NCBI GenBank assembly: GCA_945878405.1
Contig: CAMCTJ010000007.1
Coordinates: 74,779 to 138,778 of the forward strand
Direction: 5' to 3'
DNA: 64,000 nt
Source: Bdellovibrio sp. ZAP7
GTDB lineage: Bacteria > Bdellovibrionota > FAC87 > UBA2466
A program made the position numbers and the translations under genes. The notes beneath the pieces were generated by a model. The model was not told the DNA's origin. It made no database searches and was given only the letters and a program-made list of their open reading frames with translations. Below, one piece after another: positions 2,069 through 59,299 of this stretch (within the stretch, counting starts at the first letter, position 1; every line of letters begins with the position of its first letter).

Positions 2069-2422
2069 ATGATAAAATGTTCAGTCATGGAGATGGTTTT
2101 AGCCTACGTGACAGCCAAAGACAAAGCCGAAGCCCAAAGACTAGCTCAGGGCCTTTTGGAGCAGCGTCTGGTGGCCTGTGTCAACGTTTTAGAGGGAATG
2201 AATTCTTTCTACTGGTGGAAGGGAAGGATTGAGCAGGGGCAAGAAACTGTGTTGTTACTTAAAACTCGATCCGACAAGACCCAACACATCAATGAATGGA
2301 TAAAATCATTTCATAGCTATGAAACCCCCTGTGTGCTTTTTTTGCCAATCACGGGAGGTAATCCAGCTTATCTTCAGTGGTTGAATTCGGAACTGAGTTT
2401 GAAAACAAGTGAGGAACTATGA
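2069..2422 (+). CDS. cutA: Divalent-cation tolerance protein CutA
   Basis: 117 aa with 'AQRLAQGLLEQRLVACVN...FYWWKGRIEQGQE..LLLKT', the conserved CutA1 core. Overlaps the next gene by 4 nt. Confidence 0.75.
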   Translation: MIKCSVMEMVLAYVTAKDKAEAQRLAQGLLEQRLVACVNVLEGMNSFYWWKGRIEQGQETVLLLKTRSDKTQHINEWIKSFHSYETPCVLFLPITGGNPAYLQWLNSELSLKTSEEL

Positions 2423-5743: not shown

Positions 5744-6219
5744 ACTTCGTTGCCTCTTTGAGGATCTTCTCTGTCCTCCTGCTCTTCTTCATCTTCCTGT
5801 TCTTCTTCGGTAGACACTGAATCGGGCTCACCATGTCGGATAAGCGCGCCATAATGGTTGGTTAGGGACAGTGAAAACAAGGTTAAAAGAGCTGTAATGA
5901 GCCCAAGCTTTTTAGTCCAACTTGAAACCTGGGTTTGACGAAAGGTAAGTGAAATAATCAGAAGAATAGAGGTCAGAATCGCAATAATGATAGAAATCTT
6001 AGCTAATTTTTCATGTTCCGACGAAAAAGATGCCTCGAGTAAACTTCCAGATAAATAAGTTGGGATGACTAGGAGGCACGCGATAATAGTCCAGATAAGA
6101 CCGATAGTTTCCCAATCCTTCTGTTTTTTTTTCCAGGCTAATCCAAAAAGAATCAAGGCAGCTAAGAGAAACAAGAGAGGAGAACGACTCAAGAATAGGT
6201 GGATTTGCGTTCCGGTCAT
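5740..6219 (-). CDS. Small polytopic membrane protein with acidic C-terminal tail, co-oriented with and overlapping slt
   Basis: 159 aa with about 4 predicted TM helices. C-terminus '[15 protein letters not shown]'. ATGA overlap with the slt start. Confidence 0.4.
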
Positions 6220-6337
6220 TAATCTTAAAATATGGGTTTAGGAGCGGGCTGTAAACCCCTAAAATTACATAAAAATAGCGCTAAACGTTCTCGTTGCCAT
6301 GAGAGGGATGGTTCGGTAGGTTTAGAGGCTAAATTTC

Positions 6338-10941: not shown

Positions 10942-11501
10942 AAGACACAGTTCACTACGCTAGCCGGATGAAGCTCTTCAATCGTGAGGATTGGAAGGTT
11001 TATTTCGCTTGGATTGGGTTGATGCTTGGGCTCTTGGGATCTGTTACCGGATTTCTCGTATTTGGTTTTCTGAGTGGCGTGCAATACCCCGCCTATGTGT
11101 GGAATGTACCTATTGGGATTTTTATTTTCGTTGGAGCTATCGCTTTCGATACCATTGGCCACCGAACCGCCTACAAGCAAGCCTTGAAGACCGGAGAAGA
11201 TCTGGTTCACCACATTACGATTTTTGCCGGCATCACCAGTGTCTTCACGCTTTGTCTGGCCTATTCTCACCGGGAGTTTTTAAGAATTCCGGCCCTCGTT
11301 CTGACGGTCCTCTCTGTGTTTTACAGCGTTATTGACGAAGCAATGCATTGGGTTCGGTACATGGCCGGAAACTCCGATCGGATTGAAATGTGGAGCCATT
11401 TTTTCATTTTTGTGGGGCACCTTATCATGGTGATCGGTTGGTGGCATTGGTTCGAACAGGGGTACCCTGGAGTTTTTGAAACCCTTAAATTAATAAAATG
11501 A
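10917..11501 (+). CDS. Hypothetical polytopic membrane protein, translationally coupled to crtIB
   Basis: 194 aa with about 5-6 TM segments and several His/Trp clusters (HHITIF, HWVRYM, GWWHW). Overlaps the crtIB end by 25 nt and the next gene by 4 nt. Family not recognised. Confidence 0.45.
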   Translation: MEHSRTFLEDTVHYASRMKLFNREDWKVYFAWIGLMLGLLGSVTGFLVFGFLSGVQYPAYVWNVPIGIFIFVGAIAFDTIGHRTAYKQALKTGEDLVHHITIFAGITSVFTLCLAYSHREFLRIPALVLTVLSVFYSVIDEAMHWVRYMAGNSDRIEMWSHFFIFVGHLIMVIGWWHWFEQGYPGVFETLKLIK

Positions 11502-13603
11502 AAAAACTTACTTTCGGTCTCTTGGCGGTTCTTTTAGTCCTCCTCCTGGGAATAGTAACTATTCCGTTTTTTGTCGATGTAGATCGGTTTCGACCCGAAA
11601 TATTGGAATTGGTAAACTCGAAAATCAATGGGCATTTCAACCTGGGTAAGCTCAAGCTGACTCTTTGGGGGGAACTAGCAGTTGAAGCGGATGAAGCTAT
11701 CTTGACCGATTCGAATAAGGCTCAAATTTTATCAGTGGGAAAATTCAAGTTGCGAGTACCCCTTCGGTCATTACTCGCCATGAAACCGGAAATTCAAGTT
11801 GTGATGCAGAAGCCCAGGGTGCAGGTCAAAAGAGACCAACGGGGGGAATGGAATGTACTCACTCTTATAAAGCAAGAGAAAGCTCAGGGAGTGGTCGGGG
11901 CTCAAGTCCCAGAAGCCAAAAGCCCTGAAGTTCCCAAAGCCGCGATAGAGGCAAAAGCTCCAGTGACAGAAGTCGGTCCTTCTTGGGCCCAGCAGGCTAC
12001 CGTTTCAATTTCAATCGAAGAGGCGGCTCTTAAGGTTGAGGATTCGAAATCACATTCTCACTATGAATTGGATCGGTTGAATTTAAAAACCGGATCCTTG
12101 TCCCTTGATTCTCTTCCCATGTTTAAGCTTTCTGGAATTTTAGGGGCTTTAACTGAAGGGCAAGGAGAGATTACTGGTCCGTTCGAAATTAACGGCGAGA
12201 GCAAAGATAAGGCCCTTAATCTTTCAGCGAACTTTGACAAGGTTTCTTTGGCCCTGGGTGCTTTTCAAAAAAAGAGTGGTTCTCCCGCTCGCCTTCGCAT
12301 GTCCATTAAAAAGACGAACGATACCTACTTGGCTGAAGGTGAGTTAGAGCCAGTCAAAGTAGGAGGAAACTATCTTAAGCAAGACGTTGAAGTAACGGCC
12401 CAATGGAAGGCTACAACTGATGCAGTTGAAAAGGCAGTTCTAAAATTAAAGGCAAAGGCTTTTGATTGCGAAGTCTCCACTCAAGTTAAATCCTTTGAAA
12501 ATCCTAAAATCATGGTGAATGTCCTTTCGAATGAAATGAACCTAGATGAGTTAGTGGATTGGGTAAAAATGAAAAACGCTTCTCCACCAGCCCGAAAAAC
12601 AATCGATAAGGGGGAGGCGCCGGTCCCGGTTATGCCACAATCGACAAAGGCGGCCTCGGCAACTCCAGCGACCACGGCCCCATCAACTCCCAGTGCACCC
12701 GCTAAGACTGCCTCTGGGGAAATTGTTTTCAATGCAAGGGTTATAAAACTTTATCAAATGCAGCTTGAACCAGTCAGAGGAAAGTTCCTTTTGAGAGACC
12801 AAAAACTCGCTGGTACTTTCGATGAGATTCGCCTGTGGGGCGGGAAAATCAAGGGAACAACTCAAGTAGATCTAACAATGAAAGCTCCTAAATATGCTTT
12901 TCAAGTGCAATTGGATGGATTGAGCCTTGGAGAGGCCGTCGCTTCGAAAATGGAGTTTTTCAAAAATACGATCAGGGGATCACTCAGCGGGGAAATGTCT
13001 GGCAAAGGAGAGGGAGCGGACGCTAACTCGGCAAAAAAGAGTTTAAACGCGAATGGAAAAATGTTTATCGCCGGAGCAAAGCTGAACACGTTTGATATTC
13101 ATAAAATGGTGGCCGGAGGGATTAAAGGAGCTTACGAAAAAGTCTCGGAAAAAATTCCTGCTCTTAAAGGGAAAGAGCTGAAGATGGGAGATGTTTCATC
13201 AGAGTTTAAAAAAATTACCGCTACCTTCACCATAAAAGAGGGGGAATTTCAGTCGCCCGATTTTTTTGCTGAGGCCATTCCCCAAAAAGGAGTGGACATC
13301 AAAGGAAATATGAAAGTTGGACTTTTGGATTTTGCGCTCAAAGCAGATTGGGAAGTTTACGATACTTATAATCTTTTGCATGTCGACCCGATTTTAATCG
13401 AGCGTGGAAAGCCCTTCCGAATTCCTATTTCAGTCGGGGGAACGTTGCTCAGTCCGGAATACAGTTACCTCCAGATTCCAGAAGCTTTGGTTCAAGTCGC
13501 GCTAAAAAACCTGGGAGCTGCAGCTCAAGAAAAAGCCACTCAGGAAATAAAGAAGCAGGCCGAAGGACAAATCAAAAATATTCTCAAAGGGATTTTTAAG
13601 TAA
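11498..13603 (+). CDS. AsmA-family outer-membrane biogenesis/lipid-transport protein
   Basis: 701 aa. N-terminal TM anchor 'MKKLTFGLLAVLLVLLLGIVTIPFFVDVDRFRPEI' is typical of AsmA/TamB-like proteins. Long beta-rich periplasmic region. Confidence 0.65.
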   Translation: MKKLTFGLLAVLLVLLLGIVTIPFFVDVDRFRPEILELVNSKINGHFNLGKLKLTLWGELAVEADEAILTDSNKAQILSVGKFKLRVPLRSLLAMKPEIQVVMQKPRVQVKRDQRGEWNVLTLIKQEKAQGVVGAQVPEAKSPEVPKAAIEAKAPVTEVGPSWAQQATVSISIEEAALKVEDSKSHSHYELDRLNLKTGSLSLDSLPMFKLSGILGALTEGQGEITGPFEINGESKDKALNLSANFDKVSLALGAFQKKSGSPARLRMSIKKTNDTYLAEGELEPVKVGGNYLKQDVEVTAQWKATTDAVEKAVLKLKAKAFDCEVSTQVKSFENPKIMVNVLSNEMNLDELVDWVKMKNASPPARKTIDKGEAPVPVMPQSTKAASATPATTAPSTPSAPAKTASGEIVFNARVIKLYQMQLEPVRGKFLLRDQKLAGTFDEIRLWGGKIKGTTQVDLTMKAPKYAFQVQLDGLSLGEAVASKMEFFKNTIRGSLSGEMSGKGEGADANSAKKSLNANGKMFIAGAKLNTFDIHKMVAGGIKGAYEKVSEKIPALKGKELKMGDVSSEFKKITATFTIKEGEFQSPDFFAEAIPQKGVDIKGNMKVGLLDFALKADWEVYDTYNLLHVDPILIERGKPFRIPISVGGTLLSPEYSYLQIPEALVQVALKNLGAAAQEKATQEIKKQAEGQIKNILKGIFK

Positions 13604-13608
13604 GAATT

Positions 13609-13683
13609 TGGTTGGGGCGCCAGGATTCGAACCTGGGAATGCTGGAATCAAAATCCAGTGACTTACCGCTTGTCTACGCCCCA
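13609..13683 (-). tRNA. tRNA-Gln (anticodon UUG)
   Basis: Reverse complement reads UGGGGCGUAGACAAGCGGUAAGUCACUGGAUUUUGAUUCCAGCAUUCCCAGGUUCGAAUCCUGGCGCCCCAACCA. It has a cloverleaf with a GGUUCGAAUCC T-loop and anticodon loop UUUUGAU. Very close to the E. coli tRNA-Gln sequence as I recall it. Confidence 0.85.
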
Positions 13684-13743
13684 CCAGGGACAAGCCCGGA
13701 AAACACTATTTCTAACGAAATTTCTGCTGTTTGTCTCTGAGAT

Positions 13744-15540
13744 TTAAAGAGATTTCTGTGGTGCGGCGAGTCGCAACCCTTCATGGATGAGTTTCGCGAT
13801 ATCGGAGGGGCTCTGTTTTGCTTGGACAAGAAGCCTTTCTTGTAAGTGTTCTCCCAAGGCCCGGCTTCCCTCAGCTTGAAGCAGAGAGGAGTTCAGGAGC
13901 TCTAAAATTTCCACATTTAAAAGCCATTCTTCAGGAGTTTGCGAAAGGATTTGGCCGCTCATCTTCTTTAGCTCGGTCACAGAGGCTTTGGCTTCATCTC
14001 GCATTTTTCGAAGGCTGTCGTAGAAAACGGACACTTTATTTTCTAAAGCAGAGTAGGGAGAAGCCCTTCCCGGAGAGGTACTGACTTTTCCCAGCTCGTA
14101 CTCACCATAAAGTTCTCTCTCGGCGGGGCCTGCATGAACCGAAACTGCTTTTTCACCTACGACTTGATCAAAGTCTCCCCATTCGGGCTGATAAAATACT
14201 TCACTGCCTCGGCTCACCCGACAGTTTTTCCATTGAATCAAAACTAGTTTGGCTTCAGAGCGGACCCAATCCATTAACTCGCCTTCAATCACAAATCCCG
14301 ACACAAACTCCAATCGGCAGCGAGCCCCTTTTTTAAGTCCGATTCGTGTGAGTTCATCATCATTCAACTCACTTGCGGGTTTTTGGGGAGCCGCCTTCCA
14401 TCTTCCCACTGGGGAACTAAATCCTTCAGGGTGTCTCTCCCGGCCTTGACCGGGGAGTTCTTTTTCAGCACAAGCAATCTGAACAGGGCCTTGATACTTT
14501 ACGAAATGCAGCTCATTTTTCTCTTCAATGAGTTGACAGAGATCTCCGCTGATAGAAGCCCCTTGCTCAAAGACACAAGTTGTAATCGTTCCCGAGCGCA
14601 GTGCTTTTTTCACAGACTCCACGCCGCCCACACGATAGCTTAAAGTTTCTTCGAGCTCGACCAATACAGCCGGCAGGTGCTCGAGAGATTCCGCCACAAA
14701 AAGTTGGGGTTGGGGCTCTGTAATATCATAGGTCTGATGCACGCAATCGATTGATAGCCGAATTTTTTTAACTTCCGGGCTCAAGCAATGTTTACTTTCA
14801 GCCACCGAAGAAAGAAGTCCAGCCCCGTAAATTTTGGGGTGTTTTAAATCTCCCACCAGCCCATATTCGGCAGTCCACCAATTCATGCGGGCAACCCTAT
14901 TGAGCTCGCTGATTTCAGAAATAGCTTTGATTTTTAGTTCTAAGTTATTTTCAGCTTCTTTTAGTTGCTCTTGCGTAGTGTCGGGATTTTCTTTGATATC
15001 CGACATCACTCGCACAGCTTCGTAGAGTGAAATATCTTCTTTGGTTTGCAGGGCCTTTTTTGCCATCCTTGCATACTGCTTGAAATAATCTCGGTAGAGG
15101 GGATCGGCCAAAATCGGTAAGTGGCCAGCAGCTTCATGAACAATATCGGGAGCCGGAGTATAACCAACATGTTCTAGCGTGCGCATATCCATCGCAATGG
15201 GCATGATCCCGCGAGCTTGAAAATCCAGAAATGCCGATGGGGGAATAAATCCGCTCACGCCGACTGCGCCCCACCCGAAATCTCGTAAACATTTATCAAT
15301 GTCATCAATTTTCGGAATTTTCTCTAAGCTAATCCCCGTTTTCTTGAGACCTTCCCTATAAATCGGAACCGCATGGTCTTTAAAAAAATCTCGGGCTTGT
15401 CTTAAGATATATCTCCAAGTGGATTGTTCGCGGGCAGTATAGCGAGCATAGTCTTGCCCTTTACAATACTTTTTTAAATAACCCGGAATGCGTTCTGAGG
15501 CTGGCATGGGTCCAATATACAATGACCTTTTCCTTTTCAC
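13744..15540 (-). CDS. Aromatic amino-acid (phenylalanine-4-) hydroxylase-like protein with ~300-aa C-terminal extension
   Basis: 598 aa. 'FGWGAVGVSGF...YTPAPDIVHEAAGHLPILADP' matches the biopterin-dependent hydroxylase iron-binding core (PDIxHExxGHxP). The C-terminal half is unassigned. Confidence 0.65.
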   Translation of the reverse strand: MKRKRSLYIGPMPASERIPGYLKKYCKGQDYARYTAREQSTWRYILRQARDFFKDHAVPIYREGLKKTGISLEKIPKIDDIDKCLRDFGWGAVGVSGFIPPSAFLDFQARGIMPIAMDMRTLEHVGYTPAPDIVHEAAGHLPILADPLYRDYFKQYARMAKKALQTKEDISLYEAVRVMSDIKENPDTTQEQLKEAENNLELKIKAISEISELNRVARMNWWTAEYGLVGDLKHPKIYGAGLLSSVAESKHCLSPEVKKIRLSIDCVHQTYDITEPQPQLFVAESLEHLPAVLVELEETLSYRVGGVESVKKALRSGTITTCVFEQGASISGDLCQLIEEKNELHFVKYQGPVQIACAEKELPGQGRERHPEGFSSPVGRWKAAPQKPASELNDDELTRIGLKKGARCRLEFVSGFVIEGELMDWVRSEAKLVLIQWKNCRVSRGSEVFYQPEWGDFDQVVGEKAVSVHAGPAERELYGEYELGKVSTSPGRASPYSALENKVSVFYDSLRKMRDEAKASVTELKKMSGQILSQTPEEWLLNVEILELLNSSLLQAEGSRALGEHLQERLLVQAKQSPSDIAKLIHEGLRLAAPQKSL

Positions 15541-15568
15541 CAGGACTGAACTGGGTTACACCCCTGGT

Positions 15569-15958
15569 ATGTTTCCGCAAAAGATTTGGACCCTGGTCGT
15601 TCTACCGAATTTGCTTTTGGTCATGAGCCACGCTTTTCCGAGAACAGATCGGAAGCAATTTGATGAGGGATATTTAGCAAAAGACCAACAGCTGTGGATC
15701 AAATATGAGGGTCCAGGAACTTCCCGATTTCAGGGTGTCTGGGCGAACTCTCTCAATCAAAAAAACATCACTGGGATTCGGGAAGGAAATGAATGGGTGT
15801 TTCAATCAGGACACACTTGGTGGAAAGCCCAACTCAGTGAGGGCGGCTCACGGTGCGAGCCAGTGCTGCAGATTCAAAACATTACCAGTCAAGAAAAACC
15901 TATCCAGTTAAGAGCCAATTATTGTGGTCGCAACTCAAAAAGGAACGTCTTTTTTTGA
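15569..15958 (+). CDS. Small secreted hypothetical protein
   Basis: ORF 15488-15958. The internal Met at 15569 gives signal peptide MFPQKIWTLVVLPNLLLVMSHA. The 5' part overlaps the divergent hydroxylase start. No homology recognised. Confidence 0.3.
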   Translation: MFPQKIWTLVVLPNLLLVMSHAFPRTDRKQFDEGYLAKDQQLWIKYEGPGTSRFQGVWANSLNQKNITGIREGNEWVFQSGHTWWKAQLSEGGSRCEPVLQIQNITSQEKPIQLRANYCGRNSKRNVFF

Positions 15959-16081
15959 GTTGGCAACTTGTTTTTTGAAAAATAAAAAAGATTTTTGTTT
16001 GACCCTTTGTGGTGGGATTTGCTAAAAATCGTGCTCTTGTTAAACATGTAGTTTTGTCCCTATTGAGGAGGAAAAGAAGTC

Positions 16082-16354
16082 ATGAATAAAGCGCAACTTG
16101 TTGAACAACTAGCAACTGAATTGGAAATGACCAAAGCAGATTGCGAAAGAGTTATTGATGGAACCTTAGACATCATTCGCAAATCAGTAAAAAAAGGTGA
16201 CGATGTGACTATGGTTGGTTTTGGAACATTCACTCGTTCCAAAAGAAAAGCTCGTACAGGACGAAATCCTCAAACTGGCGCAAGCATCAAAATTCCTGCT
16301 TGCACAGTACCTAAATTCCGTCCTGGAAAAGCATTCAAAGATTATCTGAACTAA
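16082..16354 (+). CDS. hup: HU/IHF-family nucleoid DNA-binding protein
   Basis: 90 aa. 'MNKAQLVEQLA...GFGTF..R..R.GRNPQTG..I.IPA...P.F.PGKA' is the canonical HU fold signature. A GGAGG RBS lies about 8 nt upstream. Confidence 0.9.
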   Translation: MNKAQLVEQLATELEMTKADCERVIDGTLDIIRKSVKKGDDVTMVGFGTFTRSKRKARTGRNPQTGASIKIPACTVPKFRPGKAFKDYLN

Positions 16355-16387
16355 GAGATCTTTGGTTTATAGCTTTTTATATAAAGA

Positions 16388-16429
16388 CCCTGCTTGTTTA
16401 AGAATCTTCTTAGCAAGCAGGGTTTTTTA
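16388..16429 (+). terminator. Rho-independent terminator after hup
   Basis: Perfect 9-bp stem CCCTGCTTG / CAAGCAGGG (16388-16396 and 16414-16422) followed by TTTTTTA. Confidence 0.6.
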
Positions 16430-16583
16430 TTGACGGAGGAGTCACGATGTTGACGCTTCTGTCTTGAGACTTCTGGTTACTCAGGCAGTGAGAAACCATA
16501 CTGAGGAAATAATTTCCTGCTAGAAAAGGAAAAAATAGGTCCTTAACTCACCCAGTCTGCCGGAGCACCGCCTCTCAAATCTT

Positions 16584-16598
16584 TGGCACAAGAGATGC
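16584..16598 (+). promoter_or_regulatory. Candidate sigma-54 (-24/-12) promoter TGGCAC-N5-aTGCt immediately upstream of flgF
   Basis: TGGCACaagagATGCT with GG/GC spacing of 12. The -12 element ends only about 14 nt before the flgF ATG, which implies a leaderless or very short leader. Low confidence. Confidence 0.25.
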
Positions 16599-16611
16599 TT
16601 CTTCTACCTTT

Positions 16612-17487
16612 ATGGACAAAGGTATATACACAGCATTATCGGGCGGATTAGCCAAATCTCGCGAAGTAGAACTGATCGCCAATAATTTAGCTAATGCAAC
16701 CACACCGGGTTTCAAAAGAGACACCGGAACCTTCAACGAGTACCTCACTGAGTTGCGCCGAGGGGATTCGGTAGATGGCCTTCAAAGAGAAATTCAAAGC
16801 CTTTCTGATCCTGATGCACGTCCCACCGGTGATAAAAGTTTTGTGGAATTAGACGGGGTTTACACCGATTTTAAACAAGGGACGCTTCAAAAATCGGGTC
16901 GGGCACTCGATGTTGCGATTGAAGGAACAGGTTTTTTTGAGGTCCTCACTCCAGCTGGGATTCGTTACTCGCGCCAGGGAAATTTTAGCATCGATAGCGA
17001 GGGCAGACTCGTAACGACAAGTGGCTTTCCGGTTTTAAGCAAGGCAACTCAAGGTCAAGCAGCAGTTTCCCAACTTGAGGTACGAGGAGCGCCTCCCGTG
17101 ACGGGACAAGTTCCTGATCGGCAGCCGGATGCTCAAGCCAGAGTCATTCAACTGGGGCAGGGCCCTATTCAAATTACTGAAGACGGAAGAATTTTGCAGA
17201 ATGGAGCTGAAGTAGCTTCTCTGAGTGTTGAAGAATTTCAAGAATCACAGTGGTTAGAAAAAATGGGGAACAGTTATTATCGAAACACCCATCCTGGAAA
17301 TCTTAAAAACGGAGTGACTACAAGCAAGCTCCACCAAGGCTTTATTGAAGGATCAAACGTAAATCCCGTGACGGAGATGACAAGACTCATTGAAGCCACG
17401 CGTGCCTATGAGTCTCATATGCAGGCCGTAAAAACGTATCAGGATATTGATAGCAAAAGCGTAAACGACATCGTCAAAGATAGATAA
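16612..17487 (+). CDS. flgF: Flagellar basal-body rod protein FlgF
   Basis: 291 aa. 'MDKGIYTALSGGLAKSREVELIANNLANATTPGFKRD' is the rod-protein N-terminal motif, with a conserved C-terminal rod domain. Confidence 0.85.
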   Translation: MDKGIYTALSGGLAKSREVELIANNLANATTPGFKRDTGTFNEYLTELRRGDSVDGLQREIQSLSDPDARPTGDKSFVELDGVYTDFKQGTLQKSGRALDVAIEGTGFFEVLTPAGIRYSRQGNFSIDSEGRLVTTSGFPVLSKATQGQAAVSQLEVRGAPPVTGQVPDRQPDAQARVIQLGQGPIQITEDGRILQNGAEVASLSVEEFQESQWLEKMGNSYYRNTHPGNLKNGVTTSKLHQGFIEGSNVNPVTEMTRLIEATRAYESHMQAVKTYQDIDSKSVNDIVKDR

Positions 17488-50310: not shown

Positions 50311-50421
50311 GAAAGCCTATTTCAAGTCGTAAAACATAAAAAGTAAAGTTTGATATATTGGATGCCCATCACCCATGATCTCAGATTAAAAAAGTGAGCG
50401 GTCTTGGTTAGCCCCAATCAA

Positions 50422-50441
50422 TTGTGAAGATATCTTCACAA
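50422..50441. repeat. 20-bp palindrome TTGTGAAGatatCTTCACAA (copy 3), in the divergent intergenic region about 180 nt upstream of the giant ORF
   Basis: Same 8-bp arms as copies 1 and 2. Sits between the GT cluster start (50310, minus strand) and the giant gene start (50621, plus strand). Confidence 0.7.
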
Positions 50442-50620
50442 TTTCTCCACAATGTTCAAGCTGAGCCCCCAATAATTGCGTCAAGTTAAAATGATACCCT
50501 GAAAGGTAAGGCGGAACGTATGTGTATTTGGAAACCACATTTAGCTTCGATGAGGAATCTTGCGCCACGCGTAAACATCAAGAGTAAAAGGAAAAAAACC
50601 GAAAAGGAGCGTGAAACCAA

Positions 50621-53600
50621 GTGAAACGCTTCCTTCCATTTCATGCTGTCCTTTTATTCTTCGCGGTTTGCTTTGCTTCTTTTGCAGAAGAAAAAGGTCG
50701 GCTGAGTGCGAGTGATTTGGCGCCTGGTGCATCGGATGGTTTCGTCTTTAGTAATTCCGCAACTCCAGATACTCAGTGCGATGAGGGCAGTGGGGGTGAC
50801 TGCTGCGATGGAACTCTTCAAGAAACGTTTGCCGGGGTAACGAAATTCACAACAAGTTACTGCAAAGGCCGATATGCCGGAAAAGCAAGCTCCACTCGTT
50901 ACGGAATTCGGTTTGATACGTTTCACGCTTTTCGAAGTATCCTCAACGAAAATCAGTTAGTACTTGTGAATTCGAATGCTGGATGCACGAGCGGCGACTG
51001 CTGCCCCACCGGCGGAAGTAAGACCTATAACTGGCTCCTAGTAAGAGCGAGACCTTTTGATAATTACAGCTCGCCGATGGATATGTCGCTGGATACGACT
51101 TACGTTGGGGGAACCATCACCTATGACCATTCGCAAACTGTAAAGTGGTCCGGATCTTCAAAATTTAGTTTAAATGCCCTAGATGCTGAAACGAAGACTA
51201 ACTCCTCTGCTTATGGAGCCCGGCTTTTTGGAACTTCTACCTGCAGCGCGGGAGAATTTAAAGCAAGCGCAGTCACAGATTTTACTGCCGCCAATAGGCC
51301 TCTTGGAAATTATGGGTACTGGCTCTTTGGTAAGAACGTAGCTTTCTACCGACAGGTAAGTGCAGATCCTGTCATTGCCGTTGCTTTTCCAAGGCCAGCG
51401 CAGAGTCTGAGTTCTTCTGGAGTAATGGCTAGTAAGAACAAACAAGTTTTTACTGGAAATTATACCGGCTTCACGACGAGGGGAGTTCAGGTTCAAAGAA
51501 ATGTCATGCTGATTCCTGATGTCGCGGGAACAACTTTTACGATTTCGGAAGTAGCAGATCCCTCCAATCCCTTCTCAGTCAGCACTCTGGGGACTTTAGC
51601 TTGCACGAATTTAGATGAGCCGAGCCAAGGTTTCTGCCGAGGCACCCTGACCCTGACTGCAGTTCCTGGATTTTCAGGAAAAGCCACTTGCATGATGGCT
51701 TACGATATCGGTAATCGGGATCTTGTTTTTTGTAGCGCGCAGAATCCCTCCGCTGATAGCAATCACCAACGAGCGCTCGTCACCATTGCGGCAGTTTCAT
51801 CGCACAAGAGCGTTCTTGCGATGACTGCGTCGCCAGTACACTTAGATGCCAATACCTCCAGTGGGCAAATGTGTGCAACCGTGGAAAATATGACGTCGCG
51901 AGCAGTCGACACATTAACGCTTACTGGAAACTTAAGTGGTGACTTCTCGGCGGTTTCTCTCTCAGGTTCTGTCACAGCGCCGTTCAGTGGCCTTACTGGT
52001 TCAGTGTCAGCTTGTGGCACTTCTTTGCCAGCTTTTTCAAAATGTAAATTGTGTTCGAATGTTACTTTAACGACTCAAAAAGTAAGTGCCCACGCTTTAA
52101 CCCTGACTTTTGGAGATACACCGAGTTCGACAAAAAGCATGTCAGACACAGCGGTTGCGACTCGTGGGGTTTCGAACCTTCAATATGAAGTGGGGAAAGT
52201 AACCCAGAACAAGACTCCCTCGGTTAAAGCCGTCTTTGCCAATGGCACTACCCAAAACATTGATGCAATTAAGGAAAAGCTACAGTGTTCAGGAGTTTGT
52301 ACTTCAGCCACTGGAACCCGATCGCTTGCCTATACCTTGGAAGGCCTTGAGAGCGCTCCCGCAGTGGGCGATGTGCTCGTAAGCACTGAAGAAGAGCTTT
52401 GTTACAACGAAGAAGACGACGACAACGACGGAACCACCGACTGCCAAGATAACGACTGCGATTCCGAAAGAGCAGATATCAGTCACACCGATATTCTATG
52501 TAATTATAATAGCGAGCGAGATTGTGCAGACTCTTTTGATAATGATCGAGATGGGAATACCGATTGTGATGATGGAGATTGTGCCCTTGCATGTAATGTT
52601 TGGGAAACCGCTTGTAACAATAGTCTCGACGATGATTCTGACGGAAACACAGATTGTGCCGATTCAGATTGCAACGGACAAGTAAATGCTGACTTTAGAT
52701 ACTGTGGTCTCGAGACTCACTCCTATGGTGGGTGTGTGCTCGATGGAGTTGACGATGACAGCGACGGTTATACCGATTGCGCCGATCCGGATTGTTACGG
52801 CGGTTATGTTGGTTGGGGACCCTATGGAGGAACTTGTGACTCTGGAACTGAAACTAATTGCAGCGATGGATACGATTTCGACGGCGATGGTTTAACTGAC
52901 GCCAATGATCCAGATTGTGTGGTCTGCCTTGATTCTGACGGCGATACGTTTGGTGACGGTTGCTCTGCTGGCTCCGATTGCGATGATAACTTCAGCGACG
53001 CTTCCAACAATTGCTCCGACAACGTGGTTTTAGATTTGCGTTTCGATACAGATACGAGCGATTCCTCGAACTATCATCACGCGGTTGGAGCTAATGGAAG
53101 CCCCGCTATTTCCACGAGCAACGCGAAGTTTGGTGGAGGGAGTGCAAACTTTAATGGTAACGGCGACAGAATCGATATTTCCTCAAGCACAGATTTTGAT
53201 CTGGAAGACGGGGACTACACTATTGAGTTCTGGACTTTTGTACGAAGCGTAGCAGGGTCAGATGCTGCTAGATTGTTTACTTTAGAAAATAACGATGAGG
53301 CGTGGGGAATAATTCTTGCCAACGATGGTAGCAACAGTCTTTACGTGAATCATTATGGAATTGGTGAGGGTTTTGAAGTCAGTGGCGCACTCAACGGGAA
53401 ATTGAACCAGTGGGTGCATCTGGCCTTGGTGAAGAACGGCACAACTAGAACTCTTTATATTGATGGGGTAGCTGGAGGCTCGACCAACTCAAGAGTGTTG
53501 CCGGCTAATGCTGCGCAATTATCAATTGGTGGCAGTACCATTTGGTATCCTTATACACAGTTTGACGGTCTTATCGACGAACTGAAAATCACCAAAGGCT

Positions 53601-56600
53601 ATGCACGCTACACCACAAACTTCACACCTCCCACTTGCGCATCGATGAGCGAATCCGATGCCGATAGCGATGGTATCTGTAATAGCGCGGATACTGAAAG
53701 CTGCAGTGATTCGATTGATAACAACGGTAATGGCCAGACGGATGAAGAATGTTCTTCTTGCAACAGTAGCGATTCCTCCTCGGCAATTTGTAACCAAACT
53801 GGCACTTGCTGGAATCAAAGCGGTTGTCAGTGTGGAGTCTATGATTCAGTTAGCTACGGGCAATCCTGTACGATGGGCGGTGGCGGATCAACCGAAAACT
53901 GTTCTGATTCATTAGATAATGATTCCGATGCTTCAACCGATTGCCAAGATGCGGATTGTGATGGGGTGTCAGGCGGTAGCGGTATCTGTCACAACAATTC
54001 TGAAACTTGTAGTGATAGCTTTGATAATAATGGCAATGGCCAGACAGATGAAAATTGTTATCCCTGCATGGACAACGACGGCGATGGATATGGTTATTAT
54101 TGTGCGATCGGTGAAGATTGCGACGATTGGGCTAATTGGATAAACCCCGGTGCTTCAGAAATCTGGAATGGGTACGATGACAACTGTAACGGCCAGGCCG
54201 ATGAAGGACTTGGCAATCCCTTTGACTGGGACGGAGATGGGTGGCTATCTTACATGGGAGATTGGTTTGATTGCAATGATGCCGATGGGTCCATAAACCC
54301 CGGTGCTTCCGAAACCTGCAGCGACTCAGTCGACAACAACTGCGATGGCCAGACAGATGAAAATTGTTATCCCTGCATGGACTACGACGGTGACGGGTAT
54401 GGTTACTACTGTGTTCCCGGCGAAGATTGTCAGTGGAATATGGGAGAGGGGAATTCCGCTATTCACCCCGGAGCTGCAGATGACCAAAGCGATGGTACCG
54501 ACAATGATTGCGACGGTCAGATCGATGAAGATTATACAGTTCCGTGCACAGATTCGGACACTGATGGCGTGTGCAGTGGATCTGACTGTGACGACAGCAA
54601 CGCAATCTTCAGCACAGATTGCAGCAGCAACGTGGTTTTAGATTTGCATTTTAATAGCGACTTCAGTGATTCTTCGGGTCACAATCACAATGGGACTCCA
54701 AATGGAAATGCGGAAATCAGCTCTGATGTTGCCAAGTTCGGGGGAGGCAGTGCGCATTTTGATGGAAGTTCTTGGTTAACAGTAACGGCGTCTTCAGCTC
54801 TCGCTGTGGGAACGGGTGATTTTACCTTGGAAGCCTGGGCTTATCCGACACAAGTTAATGACTTTAGCGATTTGGCTGCCGTACTAGATACACGGCCCTA
54901 TGGCGCGGGAACTGGCTTACTGATTTGGTTGGATTCTGCTTCTGGAAAATGGGTAGGGTATACCTCTACAAACGGAAATGAGGATCAACTTGTTATTAGT
55001 TCCCCTACAACAGCAACCCTCAATGCGTGGACTCATTTAGCATTGGTGCGTTCCGGAACAAGTCTTAGGTTCTTTGTAAATGGAGAACTTGCCGGAACCG
55101 AAACTTTAAATGCTAACTGGAATTTTACTCAGGACACTACGGCACCGGGTTTTGTGGGAACTGCAGCCGATGCCCCTGGATACTTCCGCAACTTCTATGG
55201 CTATATCGATTCAGTAAAAATCACCAAAGGCGCAGCGCTCTACACAACCACCTTCACGCCCGCTACTTGCGCATCGATGAGCGAATCTGATGTCGATAGC
55301 GATGGCATCTGTGATAGCGCGGATACTGAAAGCTGCAGTGATTCAATTGATAACGATGGCGATAGTCAGACAGATGAAGAATGTTCTTCTTGCAACAGTA
55401 GCGATTCCTCCTCGGCAATTTGTAACCAAACTGGCACTTGCTGGAATCAAAGCGGTTGTCAGTGTGGAGTCTTTGATTCAGTTAGCTACGGGCAATCCTG
55501 TACGATGGGCGGTGGCGGATCAACCGAAAACTGTTCTGATTCAGTAGATAATGATTCCGATGCTTCAACCGATTGCCAAGATGCGGATTGTGATGGGGTG
55601 TCAGGCGGTAGCGGTATCTGTCACTACAGTTCAGAAACGTGCAGTGATAGCTTTGATAATAATGGCAATGGTCAAACAGATGAGAACTGCAATTCTGACG
55701 TAAGCGGCGGCGATCCGTACTTTGATGATGTGAGAGTGCTTGTTCATGCGGACGAAAACATTACGAATCATGCAAACGGGGGAACGCCCACAGTAACTTT
55801 CGTTGGCGGAGCGAATTACTCGACCTCCGACAAGAAGTTTGGATCAGCTTCCGCGCAGTTCTCACCGCAGATAACCCAGTACTGCGATGGGTGGTGGGGT
55901 TGTTATGACCAGTTAGTAGTTCCCAATTATTTAAAGATAAACGACACCTCAAGAACGATTCCTGCGAATTACACTGCTGAGTTCTGGGTAAAACCCGATT
56001 CCGATTGGAGTGGCGCAGTCTCAAGAAGATTATATCAACGAGGCGTTAGCGATATGGGGATGTATGGTATCGATGTTTATTACAATAACAATCGAATCTA
56101 TTTTAGTTTTTACAATAGCAATTATTACTATGATGGGTCTGGTGAGGGGGGGTGCGATCAATCGGGTAGCACTTATGGAGATGTTGGTACTTTGAGTGCG
56201 AACACTTGGTACCACGTAGCGATTGTGAGAGAGGGTAGTGCGATCAGAATTTATTTCAACGGAAACCGAATTGGGACGGGCACACTAAGCGCTAATTCCT
56301 ACACGTATTGGGGCACAATTCCCTCATGTACTGCCACAGAAGCTATCACACTTAGCGATTGGGGAAATGTAAACGAAGGTTTCGGAGTATCTTTTGACTA
56401 CGGTGACAATATTTACGATAACGTCACCGCTAAGTTTGACGAAATCCGAATCAGCAACAGAGCTCGTTACTCAGATACAAGCTTTACTCTTCCCACTTCG
56501 CCGTATCCCAATACCAAGCAAGCGGTAGCTCCCGAAATCAGTATTTCGCCCTCGAGCTACACGTTAACAGCTGGCACAGCGATGACAGCGATTGTTCCAA

Positions 56601-59299
56601 GCCTCACCATGGGCACGATTGATTCTTGCGTTGTATCGCCTTCGCTCCCCGCAGGATTGTCGTTAAATAGTTCCACTTGCGGTATTTCTGGAACTCCGAC
56701 TTATGGTGGAGGCTCGCAGTCTTATACGATTACTCCTTCGAACTCGGTCGGTACTGGTAATAGTGTCACCGTATCATTGACCATTAACGGTGCGGATGCT
56801 GGCGGCAATTATTACACCGGTGGTTCATTGGCTAGTGGAGTTGTTAATAACGCCGCGGGGCTTTCTGTCGAGTTCAGTAATTCAAATGATTTCACATCAA
56901 ACTTCGCAATCACAACACCAGCTGACGGAACGGCAACTGTCACGAACGGACAACTAGAATTTAGAAACCCAAATCCCGACAGACTTCCTGGTTATCATTT
57001 CAAGAACCCCGTATCTGCTTCGGCTATCGAAATCAAATTTACTCATCCAAGCCTCTATCCAAATTGGCATTGCCCAACTATTGCATTCTCCAATGGACTG
57101 GGTACTTTCACTGTTGCTTATGATCCGAAATATTCGGATGGCGGTTGGTGCGATGCAAACTCAATCAAGACTTCATTTGGCAGCTTCCCCATGGGTCATT
57201 TAGCCGGTGGCCAAGCTCATATCATTAAGCTTGAGGTCAATACACAAACACAAACTGCTACCCTCACGATTGATGGAACCTCACAGACCTATACGAATGC
57301 GATGTTTGCACAAAAACTCACCAACTTTGAACATGTACCAAATTATTCGTGGTACTGCGGCAGTTACACTACTTACATTGATTATGTCAGAGCCTACGAT
57401 TATGGTTGCTACTCAAATGGCTCGGCTGACAGTAGTTTCAACGCAAACGGAACGGGTTTCTGCAGCGGCACTTACTACATCGGTGGAGTAGCCTACGCAG
57501 GATTAGATTCCAACGGAAATGGAACGTCTGGTGGATTGCTTTACTCAAGTGGTTCACTCTTTACCGGAATGTACTCGGATTGGAACTGCTACGTTAATGG
57601 CGCCAATACTGGTGGCGTCGTGAGTGGTACCGGCTGGTGTAGTGCGGATAGTGTTTATTACGTAAGCTACAGCGGAACGAGTCTTCCCTCCAGCGGCACT
57701 GGAAACTACATGGGCAACTATTACAGTAGCGGCACATTGGTAGGCACAACGGCTTCGATATCGATTATGAGTCAGCCGTCCGATCAAACGGCTTCAAGCG
57801 GCAGCGCTACTTTCAGTATTGGTGCAAACATCACGGCTCCCGCTTCACTGAGTTACCAATGGCAGAAACAAGAAAGCGGCACGGGAAGCTTTAGCGATAT
57901 CAGCGGGGCAACGAGTGATTCACTTGTGCTTTCAAATCTGACCTATTCTTCAGATAATGGAGATGTGTATCAAGTCGTGTTGAGCGGAACACAAGGGGCC
58001 TCGAGTATTACCAGTAGCTCTGCAACGTTGAGTGTTCCTGTTTACGCTCCCGATGTACCGACTTCTGTAAGTGGAGCCGCTGGCAATGCCGAAGTGGAAG
58101 TAACGTGGACTGCCCCTAGCAATAATGGTGGAAGCGCGATTACGGATTATGTGATTCAGATTTCATCTGATAGCGGAAGCTCTTGGACAACTTACAGTGA
58201 TAGCGCTTCTACTTCAACGAGTGCTTCAGTAACCGGATTAACCAATGGCACAAGCTATGTCTTCCGAGTTGCCGCAGTAAATATTGGAGGTACAGGAGAT
58301 TTCAGTCTTGCTTCGACTTCAGTCTCTCCGAGTGCCAATGCAGGGGATCCTTATTTCAGTGACGTAAGAGTACTTGTGAACGCGGACGAAAACATTACGA
58401 ATCATGCAAACGGGGGAACGCCCACAGTAACTTTCGTTGGCGGAGCGAATTACTCGACGTCCGACAAGAAGTTTGGATCAGCTTCTGCACAGCTCTCACC
58501 GCAGATAACCCAGTACTGCGATGGTTGGGGTTGTTATGACCAGTTAGTAGTTCCCAATTATTTAAAGATAAACGACACCTCAAGAACGATTCCTGCAAAT
58601 TACACTGCTGAGTTCTGGGTAAAACCCGATTCCGATTGGAGTGGCGAAACCTCAAGAATGTTATATCAAGGGGGCGTGTTTGATCCTGGAGTAAGCGGGC
58701 TTCAGCTTTATCATTACAACGGTCGTCTGTACCTCAGTCTGAATAGCTATAACTATGGCTATTATTCGGGTCAGGGCGACTGGAGTTGCAATCATTCTGG
58801 TTACAACTATGCGGATGTGGGTACTTTGAGCGCGAGTACTTGGCACCACATAGCGATTGTGAGAGAGGGCAATGCACTCAGACTTTATTTCAACGGAAAC
58901 CGAGTCGGTAATTCAACGATTAGCGCCAGCTTCGAATCTTATGATGGCTCTTCGCCTGCCGGTGGATGTACAGCTTCGGGCGCTATCTCTTTGAGTAGTT
59001 GGGGTGAAACAAAGGCGGTCTTCGGCGTGGAGTCGGACTACAGTGATTATGTTTTCAGCAACGTCACCGCTAAGTTTGACGAAATCCGAATCAGCAACAG
59101 AGCTCGTTACTCCAGCGCTACTTATACTGTTCCAACCGCAGCATTCCCAAAAAGTGCAGCGCCTGTCTCTTGCAATAGTGAGACTTATGCGGGAGATACT
59201 TGTAACCAGGTTGGAACCTGTTACAGCCCTACGGGCTGTTCGTGTGGCATTTACAGTACTATCTCCTATGGAGATACCTGCTCCAATCCCGGCCAGTAA
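50621..59299 (+). CDS. Giant secreted multidomain surface protein (2892 aa)
   Basis: Domains in order: signal peptide (MKRFLPFHAVLLFFAVCFASFA), TSP3-like Asp/Cys Ca-binding repeats, MopE-like Cys/Asp repeats, four concanavalin-A/LamG-like modules, a He_PIG-type Ig domain, an Ig-like domain, FN3, and a C-terminal Cys-rich knot. It is a single uninterrupted 8.7-kb ORF, and all large opposite-strand ORFs lie inside it. Domain motifs include 'DNDxDGxTDCxDxDC', 'INPGASExC.D.VDNNCDGQTDE', 'DFTIEAW...WHHVAIVREG..LRLYFNG', 'LPAGLSLNSSTCGISGTP' and the FN3 'VEVTWTAPSNNGGSAITDYVIQ'. Confidence 0.85.
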   Translation: MKRFLPFHAVLLFFAVCFASFAEEKGRLSASDLAPGASDGFVFSNSATPDTQCDEGSGGDCCDGTLQETFAGVTKFTTSYCKGRYAGKASSTRYGIRFDTFHAFRSILNENQLVLVNSNAGCTSGDCCPTGGSKTYNWLLVRARPFDNYSSPMDMSLDTTYVGGTITYDHSQTVKWSGSSKFSLNALDAETKTNSSAYGARLFGTSTCSAGEFKASAVTDFTAANRPLGNYGYWLFGKNVAFYRQVSADPVIAVAFPRPAQSLSSSGVMASKNKQVFTGNYTGFTTRGVQVQRNVMLIPDVAGTTFTISEVADPSNPFSVSTLGTLACTNLDEPSQGFCRGTLTLTAVPGFSGKATCMMAYDIGNRDLVFCSAQNPSADSNHQRALVTIAAVSSHKSVLAMTASPVHLDANTSSGQMCATVENMTSRAVDTLTLTGNLSGDFSAVSLSGSVTAPFSGLTGSVSACGTSLPAFSKCKLCSNVTLTTQKVSAHALTLTFGDTPSSTKSMSDTAVATRGVSNLQYEVGKVTQNKTPSVKAVFANGTTQNIDAIKEKLQCSGVCTSATGTRSLAYTLEGLESAPAVGDVLVSTEEELCYNEEDDDNDGTTDCQDNDCDSERADISHTDILCNYNSERDCADSFDNDRDGNTDCDDGDCALACNVWETACNNSLDDDSDGNTDCADSDCNGQVNADFRYCGLETHSYGGCVLDGVDDDSDGYTDCADPDCYGGYVGWGPYGGTCDSGTETNCSDGYDFDGDGLTDANDPDCVVCLDSDGDTFGDGCSAGSDCDDNFSDASNNCSDNVVLDLRFDTDTSDSSNYHHAVGANGSPAISTSNAKFGGGSANFNGNGDRIDISSSTDFDLEDGDYTIEFWTFVRSVAGSDAARLFTLENNDEAWGIILANDGSNSLYVNHYGIGEGFEVSGALNGKLNQWVHLALVKNGTTRTLYIDGVAGGSTNSRVLPANAAQLSIGGSTIWYPYTQFDGLIDELKITKGYARYTTNFTPPTCASMSESDADSDGICNSADTESCSDSIDNNGNGQTDEECSSCNSSDSSSAICNQTGTCWNQSGCQCGVYDSVSYGQSCTMGGGGSTENCSDSLDNDSDASTDCQDADCDGVSGGSGICHNNSETCSDSFDNNGNGQTDENCYPCMDNDGDGYGYYCAIGEDCDDWANWINPGASEIWNGYDDNCNGQADEGLGNPFDWDGDGWLSYMGDWFDCNDADGSINPGASETCSDSVDNNCDGQTDENCYPCMDYDGDGYGYYCVPGEDCQWNMGEGNSAIHPGAADDQSDGTDNDCDGQIDEDYTVPCTDSDTDGVCSGSDCDDSNAIFSTDCSSNVVLDLHFNSDFSDSSGHNHNGTPNGNAEISSDVAKFGGGSAHFDGSSWLTVTASSALAVGTGDFTLEAWAYPTQVNDFSDLAAVLDTRPYGAGTGLLIWLDSASGKWVGYTSTNGNEDQLVISSPTTATLNAWTHLALVRSGTSLRFFVNGELAGTETLNANWNFTQDTTAPGFVGTAADAPGYFRNFYGYIDSVKITKGAALYTTTFTPATCASMSESDVDSDGICDSADTESCSDSIDNDGDSQTDEECSSCNSSDSSSAICNQTGTCWNQSGCQCGVFDSVSYGQSCTMGGGGSTENCSDSVDNDSDASTDCQDADCDGVSGGSGICHYSSETCSDSFDNNGNGQTDENCNSDVSGGDPYFDDVRVLVHADENITNHANGGTPTVTFVGGANYSTSDKKFGSASAQFSPQITQYCDGWWGCYDQLVVPNYLKINDTSRTIPANYTAEFWVKPDSDWSGAVSRRLYQRGVSDMGMYGIDVYYNNNRIYFSFYNSNYYYDGSGEGGCDQSGSTYGDVGTLSANTWYHVAIVREGSAIRIYFNGNRIGTGTLSANSYTYWGTIPSCTATEAITLSDWGNVNEGFGVSFDYGDNIYDNVTAKFDEIRISNRARYSDTSFTLPTSPYPNTKQAVAPEISISPSSYTLTAGTAMTAIVPSLTMGTIDSCVVSPSLPAGLSLNSSTCGISGTPTYGGGSQSYTITPSNSVGTGNSVTVSLTINGADAGGNYYTGGSLASGVVNNAAGLSVEFSNSNDFTSNFAITTPADGTATVTNGQLEFRNPNPDRLPGYHFKNPVSASAIEIKFTHPSLYPNWHCPTIAFSNGLGTFTVAYDPKYSDGGWCDANSIKTSFGSFPMGHLAGGQAHIIKLEVNTQTQTATLTIDGTSQTYTNAMFAQKLTNFEHVPNYSWYCGSYTTYIDYVRAYDYGCYSNGSADSSFNANGTGFCSGTYYIGGVAYAGLDSNGNGTSGGLLYSSGSLFTGMYSDWNCYVNGANTGGVVSGTGWCSADSVYYVSYSGTSLPSSGTGNYMGNYYSSGTLVGTTASISIMSQPSDQTASSGSATFSIGANITAPASLSYQWQKQESGTGSFSDISGATSDSLVLSNLTYSSDNGDVYQVVLSGTQGASSITSSSATLSVPVYAPDVPTSVSGAAGNAEVEVTWTAPSNNGGSAITDYVIQISSDSGSSWTTYSDSASTSTSASVTGLTNGTSYVFRVAAVNIGGTGDFSLASTSVSPSANAGDPYFSDVRVLVNADENITNHANGGTPTVTFVGGANYSTSDKKFGSASAQLSPQITQYCDGWGCYDQLVVPNYLKINDTSRTIPANYTAEFWVKPDSDWSGETSRMLYQGGVFDPGVSGLQLYHYNGRLYLSLNSYNYGYYSGQGDWSCNHSGYNYADVGTLSASTWHHIAIVREGNALRLYFNGNRVGNSTISASFESYDGSSPAGGCTASGAISLSSWGETKAVFGVESDYSDYVFSNVTAKFDEIRISNRARYSSATYTVPTAAFPKSAAPVSCNSETYAGDTCNQVGTCYSPTGCSCGIYSTISYGDTCSNPGQ
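53581..54061 (+). repeat. Intragenic direct repeat A, copy 1 (~480 bp; second copy at 55211-55690, ~95% identical with >100-bp exact runs)
   Basis: Both copies encode 'TCASMSESD.DSDGIC.SADTESCSDSIDN.G..QTDEECSSCNSSDSSSAICNQTGTCWNQSGCQCGV.DSVSYGQSCTMGGGGSTENCSDS.DNDSDASTDCQDADCDGVSGGSGICH..SETCSDSFDNNGNGQTDENC'. Confidence 0.85.
55211..55690 (+). repeat. Intragenic direct repeat A, copy 2
   Basis: See copy 1. The two copies are about 1.63 kb apart. Confidence 0.85.
55701..56480 (+). repeat. Intragenic direct repeat B, copy 1 (~780 bp LamG-like module; second copy at 58341-59115)
   Basis: The first ~300 bp and last ~60 bp are near-identical between copies: 'GDPYF.DVRVLV.ADENITNHANGGTPTVTFVGGANYSTSDKKFGSASAQ.SPQITQYCDGW' and '..NVTAKFDEIRISNRARYS'. 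The middle is diverged but homologous. A 3-nt indel distinguishes WWG from WG. Confidence 0.8.
58341..59115 (+). repeat. Intragenic direct repeat B, copy 2
   Basis: See copy 1. The two copies are about 2.64 kb apart. Confidence 0.8.

Follow-up and report, generated by a model that had tools for sequence, protein, structure and literature searches.

The window analyzed here is a stretch of 64,000 nucleotides (nt), or 64 kb, from contig CAMCTJ010000007.1 of Bdellovibrio sp. ZAP7 (positions 74,779 to 138,778). It contains a giant open reading frame (ORF) on the forward strand (50621-59299, +), which starts with GTG and encodes a protein of 2,892 amino acids (aa). This protein comprises an N-terminal signal peptide, a domain of about 600 aa, Cys/Asp-rich and MopE-type repeats, four Laminin_G_3 (LamG) domains, He_PIG Ig and fn3 domains, and a Cys-rich C-terminus. 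The subject of this analysis is the third and the fourth LamG domain. Module A (LamG3, aa 1697-1963; 55709-56509, +) extends from the residues GDPYF to a PT..YP end, and module B (LamG4, aa 2575-2843; 58343-59149, +) is a direct repeat of A. Stretches of near identity and strongly diverged stretches alternate along the two modules, a pattern that is probably the result of segmental gene conversion within the gene.

The identity profile was obtained from a codon-based alignment of A and B, in which corresponding positions lie 2634, 2631, or 2640 nt apart; all of these offsets are multiples of three, as expected for in-frame direct repeats. A reading of the sequence alone had placed the repeat at 55701-56480 and 58341-59115; it is real and slightly offset, with the module limits given above as the limits of homology. 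All segments of the profile are on the + strand. The first one, S1 (approximately 55709-55747 in A and 58343-58381 in B), has a nt identity of 72%. Its first 36-39 nt encode an almost identical peptide (GDPYFxDVRVLV), in which 8 of the 11 codons for the same amino acid differ synonymously. S1 is located outside the conversion tract, and these synonymous differences mark a sharp 5' edge of the latter. It is followed by tract 1 (segments S2 and S3; 55748-56015 in A, 268 nt, and 58382-58646 in B, 265 nt) with 97.7% identity, in which A and B differ by six substitutions and a 3-nt indel and share identical runs of 77, 26, 31, 71, and 49 nt. The indel consists of an extra TGG in A (55892-55894), which encodes an additional Trp (WW versus W); a single W is present in B and also in modules A2 and B2 of a related contig described below. 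Residues 14-103 of the module are encoded by tract 1; among them are a hairpin with Cys residues, CDGW(W)GCYDQ, and the strand EFWVKP. Next are core 1 (S4; 56016-56161 in A, 58647-58795 in B), with about 60% nt identity, saturated synonymous divergence (dS), and a nonsynonymous divergence (dN) of about 0.36, and the central island (S5; 56162-56251 in A, 58796-58885 in B), with 80% identity (about 85% in the best windows) and the family-wide motif TW.H.A.VREG. Core 2 (S6; 56252-56419 in A, 58886-59059 in B) has about 58% nt identity, saturated dS, and a 6-nt indel. Within the diverged cores, no run identical between A and B exceeds 20 nt. Tract 2 (56420-56472 in A, 59060-59112 in B) is identical at 53 of 53 nt (NVTAKFDEIRISNRARYS), and the last 37 nt of the modules form a tail (56473-56509 in A, 59113-59149 in B) with about 60% nt identity.

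The sequence-only reading had described a first part of about 300 bp and a last part of about 60 bp as nearly identical, including a 3-nt indel, and the central 400 bp or so as homologous yet diverged. Tract 1, tract 2, and the TGG indel bear out the former observation, and the identity of about 60% outside S5 bears out the latter. With regard to the extent of the identical flanks, the approximate lengths hold, but the outermost 36 nt at the 5' end and 37 nt at the 3' end of the module are outside the homogenized tracts.

When identity was followed along the length of the modules, the breaks were abrupt and went beyond all shuffles, and divergence was not uniform. The longest identical run of 77 nt compares with a maximum of 55 nt in 20,000 shuffles of the variable sites, and the best 270-nt window contains 9 differences compared to a minimum of 39 in 5,000 shuffles. 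Within the downstream part alone, none of 20,000 shuffles reached the 53-nt run of tract 2 (maximum 34). The synonymous sites follow the same boundaries. NG86 estimates of dS are 0.06-0.15 in tract 1, whereas dS is saturated and dN is 0.36-0.41 in the A-B cores. Where A and B have the same residue, the codons differ in 5 of 78 cases in tract 1 and in 20 of 52 cases in the cores (Fisher p = 8e-6), and for tract 2 the synonymous differences amount to 1 of 17 compared to 20 of 49 in the cores (p = 0.007). Because synonymous sites are alike in the tracts and saturated in the cores, the near identity reflects homogenization and not constraint on the protein.

An interpretation of the central island as a third conversion tract was rejected. 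Its synonymous sites differ in 5 of 20 cases and are indistinguishable from those of the cores (20 of 49; p = 0.28), while the residues of its W.H.A.VR.G motif, to which the similarity is mainly credited, show little or no variation among 37 LamG_3 domains. Constraint accounts for most of the similarity of the central island.

Relatives of the modules are scarce. When 1.84 billion representative proteins were searched exhaustively with HMMER, only two with this module subtype passed the cut-off of E = 1e-30, P0001 (module C, on contig L002) and P0029 (module D, on contig L083). A further one, P0004, is an orthologue-like protein of 3,637 aa encoded on a 17-kb Joint Genome Institute (JGI) contig, L001, and was found with the full-length protein as query. 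Its modules are 70% identical, and it was missed by a word-index search with module A, which returned P0001 and two weak LamG matches. No further copies and no source genome could be confirmed when genome and metagenome contigs were scanned for peptide patterns derived from the module alignment. The LamG subtype of A and B is very rare and is so far found in a few giant proteins from the environment. On L001, module A2 (3763-4560) is the counterpart of A and module B2 (7204-8007) is the counterpart of B. Exactly under tract 1 are two antisense ORFs of 86-87 aa (55761-56024, -, and 58395-58655, -), which were dismissed as chance ORFs; the same frame contains 3-7 stops in A2, B2, C, and D.

The related modules also bear on an explanation without any recombination, in which the ends of A and B are alike purely because purifying selection acts more strongly on them than on the middle. 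In favor of this explanation, the protein sequence of the tract is conserved best within the family (with C and D it shares 70-77% aa identity, compared to 36-60% in core 1), and S5 as well as part of S7 carry the residues with little or no variation among the 37 LamG_3 domains. Protein constraint, however, leaves synonymous differences in place, and these are nearly absent from the tract (5 of 78, as opposed to 20 of 52 in the cores), while the first 12 codons are identical at the protein level although 8 of 11 differ synonymously. Furthermore, the tract has a nt identity of only 66-75% to C and D from other organisms, and therefore its DNA is not itself under constraint; with 25-34% difference, C and D give no sign that a function at the nucleotide level, such as an RNA element, is conserved. 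Finally, A and B are closer to each other in the tract than B is to B2 or A to A2. Purifying selection as the sole cause is thus extremely unlikely.

Homogenization between A and B, in turn, can be placed in time. Pairwise differences in the tract (S2 and S3) are 3.1% for A-B, 9.9% for B-B2, 11.5% for A-A2, and 13.9% for A2-B2. As the A-B difference is significantly below both B-B2 (p = 0.002) and A-A2 (p = 0.0003), A and B were homogenized after the split from the L001 lineage. In S3, all four modules are 89-92% alike, compared to 66-76% for C and D, which indicates that earlier rounds of homogenization probably took place as well. The mosaic itself is also present in L001, where A2 and B2 are 89% identical in S3 and 58-60% identical in the cores. 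Parsimony-informative sites in the tract support the grouping (A,B)(A2,B2) with 5:0:1, whereas the grouping by position, (A,A2)(B,B2), is supported with 4:0:0 in S1, 15:1:4 in core 1, 17:2:0 in core 2, and 15:1:1 in the tail. S1 accordingly clusters by position with L001, A with A2 and B with B2. Such a pattern is what segmental concerted evolution classically leaves behind. Gene conversion, which had been put forward in the sequence-only reading as one possible origin of the pattern, is strongly supported by the homogenized synonymous sites in the tracts, by their saturation in the cores, and by the small A-B distance in the tract relative to the L001 counterparts. The pair belongs to the cases of segmental gene conversion, since it combines discontinuities beyond chance, synonymous homogenization, and a likeness that is higher within than between genomes, the latter with respect to the one related fragment, L001.

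Near identity or a mosaic structure could also be feigned by the assembly if repeat reads or reads of different strains had been collapsed or joined chimerically. Typical short reads do not span the 268 nt of the tract, and the loci used for comparison are metagenome contigs, which both leave room for such an artefact. The two copies in the window, however, differ by six substitutions and an in-frame indel, and each of them is embedded in unique flanks of a contiguous 64-kb stretch. In addition, the independent assembly of L001 repeats the mosaic with substitutions of its own, and the frame of the 8.7-kb ORF is maintained across all junctions. An artefact is therefore highly unlikely.

The cores have a different history from the tracts. 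In core 1, A groups with module D of P0029, while B groups with B2 of L001. Between B and B2, core identity is 81-83% and dS is 0.34-0.64. Identity between A and D, which stems from a distant organism, is uniform along the whole module (69-83%; 69-76% in the cores), and this uniformity has the look of simple orthology at a larger phylogenetic distance. The divergence of the cores is thus old and not recent, with both core types pre-dating the split of the lineages. For the A-B cores, dN/dS is 0.12-0.20, and it is at most 0.45 for every pair of cores (S4, S6) with an estimable dS, as an average over the windows.

These values do not support the diversifying selection that had been proposed together with gene conversion: in the comparison of dN/dS between core and flanks, no core value (0.12-0.45) exceeds 1, the core lineages are old, and dS is saturated in the cores and 0.06-0.15 in the tract. 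Episodic selection on specific sites may still be conceivable given the saturated dS and the few sequences. A related scenario, a recent duplication of the whole module after which the ligand-binding middle diverged quickly under positive selection, would agree with conserved ends and a variable middle, and also with the long terminal branches that A and A2 have for their cores in the quartet analysis, with 17 and 19 singleton sites compared to 3 and 4 for B and B2. It is at odds with the core dS, which is saturated (at least 2), with the low dN/dS (0.12-0.20 for A-B, at most 0.45 for any core pair), and with the presence of both core types before the split (B-B2 81-83%, A-D 69-76% identity). 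Moreover, the excess divergence between A and A2 also concerns synonymous sites, which points to replacement and not to selection on amino acids. This scenario is therefore very unlikely.

Such a replacement is suggested by a comparison of the edges and the middle of the modules at position A. The outer edges of A and A2 are 94-96% identical, while their cores are 58% (core 1) and 67% (core 2) identical and thus no closer than those of A and D. Accordingly, informative sites in S4-S6 support (A,D)(A2,C) with 32:13:14, and those in S2-S3 support (A,A2)(D,C) with 21:4:0. Synonymous differences between A and A2 amount to 23 of 53 in the cores and 3 of 27 in the outer edges, and B-B2 cores differ in 21 of 81 cases (p = 0.04). 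With moderate confidence, and from two genomes on metagenome contigs, these data suggest that the middle at position A has been replaced in one of the two lineages by that of a diverged relative.

The cassette-like exchange that had been considered in the sequence-only reading thus finds a counterpart in a core swap at position A on an evolutionary scale, but not in a programmed system with silent copies in the 64-kb window. A search of the window for silent or truncated copies with tblastn and blastn recovered, besides A and B themselves, only LamG1 and LamG2, which are distant, and no additional module was detected there as a silent copy. In a programmed cassette system for antigenic variation, the conserved ends would serve as handles by which silent donors frequently replace the expressed cores. 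Near-identical repeats that bracket variable segments, cores of different ancient lineages at position A in two close relatives, and the presence of a second giant paralogue in tandem on L001 would all suit such a system. Apart from the lack of any further module, intact or truncated, in the window, it conflicts with the fact that A and B are both parts of one ORF and not silent donors, and that the searches revealed the module subtype in only three other proteins, two among the 1.84 billion proteins and P0004 with the full-length query. Furthermore, the organism is environmental and under no known immune-type pressure. A programmed system is consequently improbable. A diversity-generating retroelement (DGR), in which one copy would act as template repeat (TR) and the other as variable repeat (VR), has practically no probability. 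Although DGR targets are often binding domains with a lectin fold and a repeat pair is present, the mismatches have no adenine bias, by which a DGR is ruled out: A is found at 28% of the mismatches in copy A and at 21% in copy B, and all twelve types of substitution are represented. About 400 nt with roughly 60% identity and indels are also unlike a TR/VR pair, and both copies are in frame within the same ORF.

Taken together, A and B are probably old paralogues in which tract 1 and tract 2 have been repeatedly overwritten by non-reciprocal intragenic gene conversion, most recently after the split from L001. With the same good probability, assigned jointly to it and the gene-conversion reading as a whole, the giant protein is Sec-secreted and adhesin-like, and A and B are two paralogous LamG domains with a concanavalin-A-like jelly-roll. 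In bacteria, homologous recombination needs a minimal efficient processing segment, which comprises a few tens of identical bases, and it is counteracted by the anti-recombination activity of mismatch repair. Conversion would start in the long perfect runs of 77, 71, 53, and 49 nt and would abort where the heteroduplex enters the diverged middle, in which no identical run is longer than 20 nt. The middles would thereby be isolated from recombination and evolve separately under purifying selection. Because conversion would begin in the identical runs and abort at the cores, the mosaic would be self-perpetuating. In addition, the tracts could act as homology arms for the replacement of a core from a paralogue or another strain, as has apparently happened at position A in one of the two genomes compared. 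Recombination between the tracts could equally delete or duplicate, in frame, the 878 codons between A and B. The comparisons show the anatomy of the modules, the pattern at synonymous sites, a likeness in the tract that is higher within than between genomes, the age of the core lineages, and dN/dS values below 1; a dependence of conversion on RecA and mismatch repair, the direction of transfer, and any consequences for ligand binding are inferred. A farther-reaching idea is that the near-identical stretches are kept as recombination handles by which giant LamG proteins of an uncultured betaproteobacterial group swap the middles of their binding domains among paralogues and strains. This is rather unlikely; if true, it would mean a shuffling of specificity at the level of domains in a free-living bacterium, and in-frame length variants without the 878 codons would occur.

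Several points weigh against the gene-conversion reading or narrow it. The central island is not demonstrably converted. In the family as a whole, no protein segment is better conserved than the one encoded by the tract (aa identity of 70-77% to C and D), so that part of the contrast between flanks and cores at the protein level is due to ordinary constraint. Timing and direction rest on few sequences, because the related material consists of two DNA loci with both modules (the window and L001) and two single modules (L002 and L083). All three contigs, L001, L002, and L083, stem from metagenomes, and repeats are easily assembled into chimeras. A transfer from B to A is suggested by S2 only, where A is 90% identical to B2 and 78% identical to A2; it is conditional on A2 representing the ancestral state, and a change in A2 would explain the values equally well. 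Finally, the search of the source genome for copies was confined to the 64-kb window.

Both modules are clear members of the Laminin_G_3 family (PF13385; gathering threshold 27.6 bits), with 60.7 bits for module A (residues 73-203) and 53.0 bits for module B. An AlphaFold2 (AF2) model of module A, which was calculated from an alignment of 37 sequences (an alignment of three sequences gave a pLDDT of 48), has a pLDDT of 90.4 and a pTM of 0.88 and predicts a single compact all-beta jelly-roll with 21 strands. In a comparison with the PDB, Foldseek ranked the HCN jelly-roll domains of the tetanus and botulinum toxins first (E 8e-9, TM about 0.5). In the model, tract 1 (residues 14-103) forms the first nine strands, including the hairpin bracketed by two Cys residues and the EFWVKP strand, tract 2 is the penultimate strand, and the diverged regions comprise residues 104-151 and 182-237. 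The proposed division into identical flanks and a lectin core thus applies to the sequence but not to the predicted three-dimensional structure, in which homogenized and diverged strands interleave in one jelly-roll. A lectin activity of the modules is suggested at the level of annotation. Compared to Laminin_G_3 and the clostridial HCN domains, the modules are alike in their PF13385 scores well above the threshold and in their HCN-like predicted fold. They differ from the Pfam model in their length (about 266 aa versus about 150) and in an additional N-terminal extension with the Cys-bracketed hairpin CDGW(W)GCYDQ.

Homogenization in the giant gene is not restricted to A and B. A second intragenic repeat consists of the Cys-rich linkers that follow LamG1 (53572-54057, +) and LamG2 (55204-55689, +), the latter being located directly upstream of module A. 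These copies are 91.8% identical, and in their central part of about 250 nt the identity is 97-100% among both window copies and the single copy on L001 (3280-3743), which far exceeds the 88% by which the N-terminal domains of the window gene and L001 agree. The second repeat represents the same kind of segmental homogenization in the same gene.

The whole giant protein matches Laminin_G_3 in four stretches with a total of 196.8 bits in Pfam and has a signal-peptide-like segment at the start of its translation. No Pfam match was found for aa 1 to about 600. The N-terminal 600 residues or so (50621-52600 in the window, aa 1-660) are also kept in both of the tandem giant paralogues that L001 encodes (88-11001 and 11682-17063), which share this domain of about 600 aa; it is uncharacterized and may be a hallmark of the protein family. 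Short Cys/Asp-rich repeats of the type C.D..DND.DG.TDC.D.DC, which are distinct from the Pfam MopE matches, are found between the LamG domains (52523-52673, 52756-52961, 53900-53960, and 55532-55592). A Cys-rich motif, CN...C NQ.GTC....GC.CG.Y...SYG..C, follows module B at the C-terminus (59150-59299, aa 2844-2892) and recurs at aa 1040-1080 (after LamG1) and aa 1585-1625 (after LamG2), the latter two positions being approximate. Inspection of the C-terminus by eye revealed no recognizable anchor or secretion signal of the PEP-CTERM, type IX secretion system (T9SS), or RTX type.

Outside the modules, L001 and the window gene share 88-95% DNA identity but differ in domain content. The first gene of L001 lacks a module of the LamG1 type and has a larger number of MopE repeats, an additional LamG domain between He_PIG and the following domain, and a long fn3-rich C-terminal extension. 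Judging from this comparison, whole modules have evidently been gained and lost in the giant genes. The second L001 paralogue matches the window gene with 81% identity over 50420-52287, including about 200 nt 5' of the start. The scanned neighbors of the giant ORF encode glycosyltransferases and a methyltransferase, and housekeeping genes in the window, which has a G+C content of about 45%, include ribBA, ahcY, flgK, and a crtI-crtB fusion. The latter is an 815-aa ORF (8494-10941, +) that apparently combines a CrtI-family phytoene desaturase (residues 7-503) with a phytoene/squalene synthase (residues 510-785). The AhcY protein of the window is 86-87% identical to proteins from metagenome-assembled genomes of Methylophilaceae and Burkholderiales, from which a betaproteobacterial chromosome was deduced as the source of the window.

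The A/B pair opens no new mechanism. Its significance lies in the fact that gene conversion acts on part of one domain, with about 40% of a jelly-roll kept identical and the lineages of the interleaved remainder pre-dating the species. Recombination boundaries in modular surface proteins thus need not match domain boundaries, and conserved stretches below the size of a domain can serve as homology arms for the exchange of the remainder. In practical terms, the tracts are hot spots of mis-assembly and potentially of in-frame deletion, and they are marks of a rare LamG subtype.

A survey of the literature on LamG domains and gene conversion yielded no description of the A/B case, but several known systems are comparable. 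In the cassette systems pilE/pilS of Neisseria, vlsE of Borrelia, tprK of Treponema, and MgPa of Mycoplasma genitalium, conserved flanks guide the segmental conversion of variable segments. The A/B pair resembles them in that variable segments are flanked by conserved sequence. It differs in that both copies are located in one ORF, with no silent donors in the 64-kb window and no sign of high-frequency switching. Gene conversion between repeats has reportedly produced mosaic genes for the Omp2a/Omp2b porins (omp2a/omp2b) of Brucella, and LigA and LigB of Leptospira share an identical N-terminal region of Big domains. With omp2a/omp2b and with the homogenized domain repeats, tandem or dispersed, of large bacterial surface proteins, the A/B pair has in common the non-reciprocal exchange within a genome and the resulting mosaic genes. 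In cases of the omp2a/omp2b type, however, whole repeats or long 5' regions are usually homogenized, whereas in A/B the homogenized part makes up only about 40% of one domain and consists of two tracts that interrupt a single fold.

In the FLO family of yeast, ectopic recombination between adhesin paralogues leads to chimeric binding domains, and a change of adhesion has been demonstrated experimentally (PMC3512402). Recombination of paralogues that gives rise to chimeric binding domains is shared with A/B, but the FLO system is eukaryotic, intergenic, and subtelomeric, and A/B is known at the level of sequence. The closest documented analogue is the pair babA/babB of H. pylori, which like homA/homB and sabA/sabB undergoes segmental concerted evolution by intragenomic gene conversion of the RecA type (PMC3960876). 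In the bab paralogues, the converted segment is more alike within a strain than between strains, while another segment defines the type, and chimeras arise (PMC3960876). As in A/B, one segment is homogenized within the genome and another one keeps its lineage-specific divergence. In contrast to babA and babB, which are separate genes at separate loci and encode outer membrane proteins of the Hop family, A and B are two LamG jelly-roll domains of one polypeptide, encoded 2.6 kb apart in an environmental organism, and are characterized by their sequence, with no known expression switching or phenotype. The A/B pair is thus a case of segmental concerted evolution by a known mechanism, and what is new is that it occurs within a gene, affects part of a single LamG fold, and is found in an environmental bacterium.

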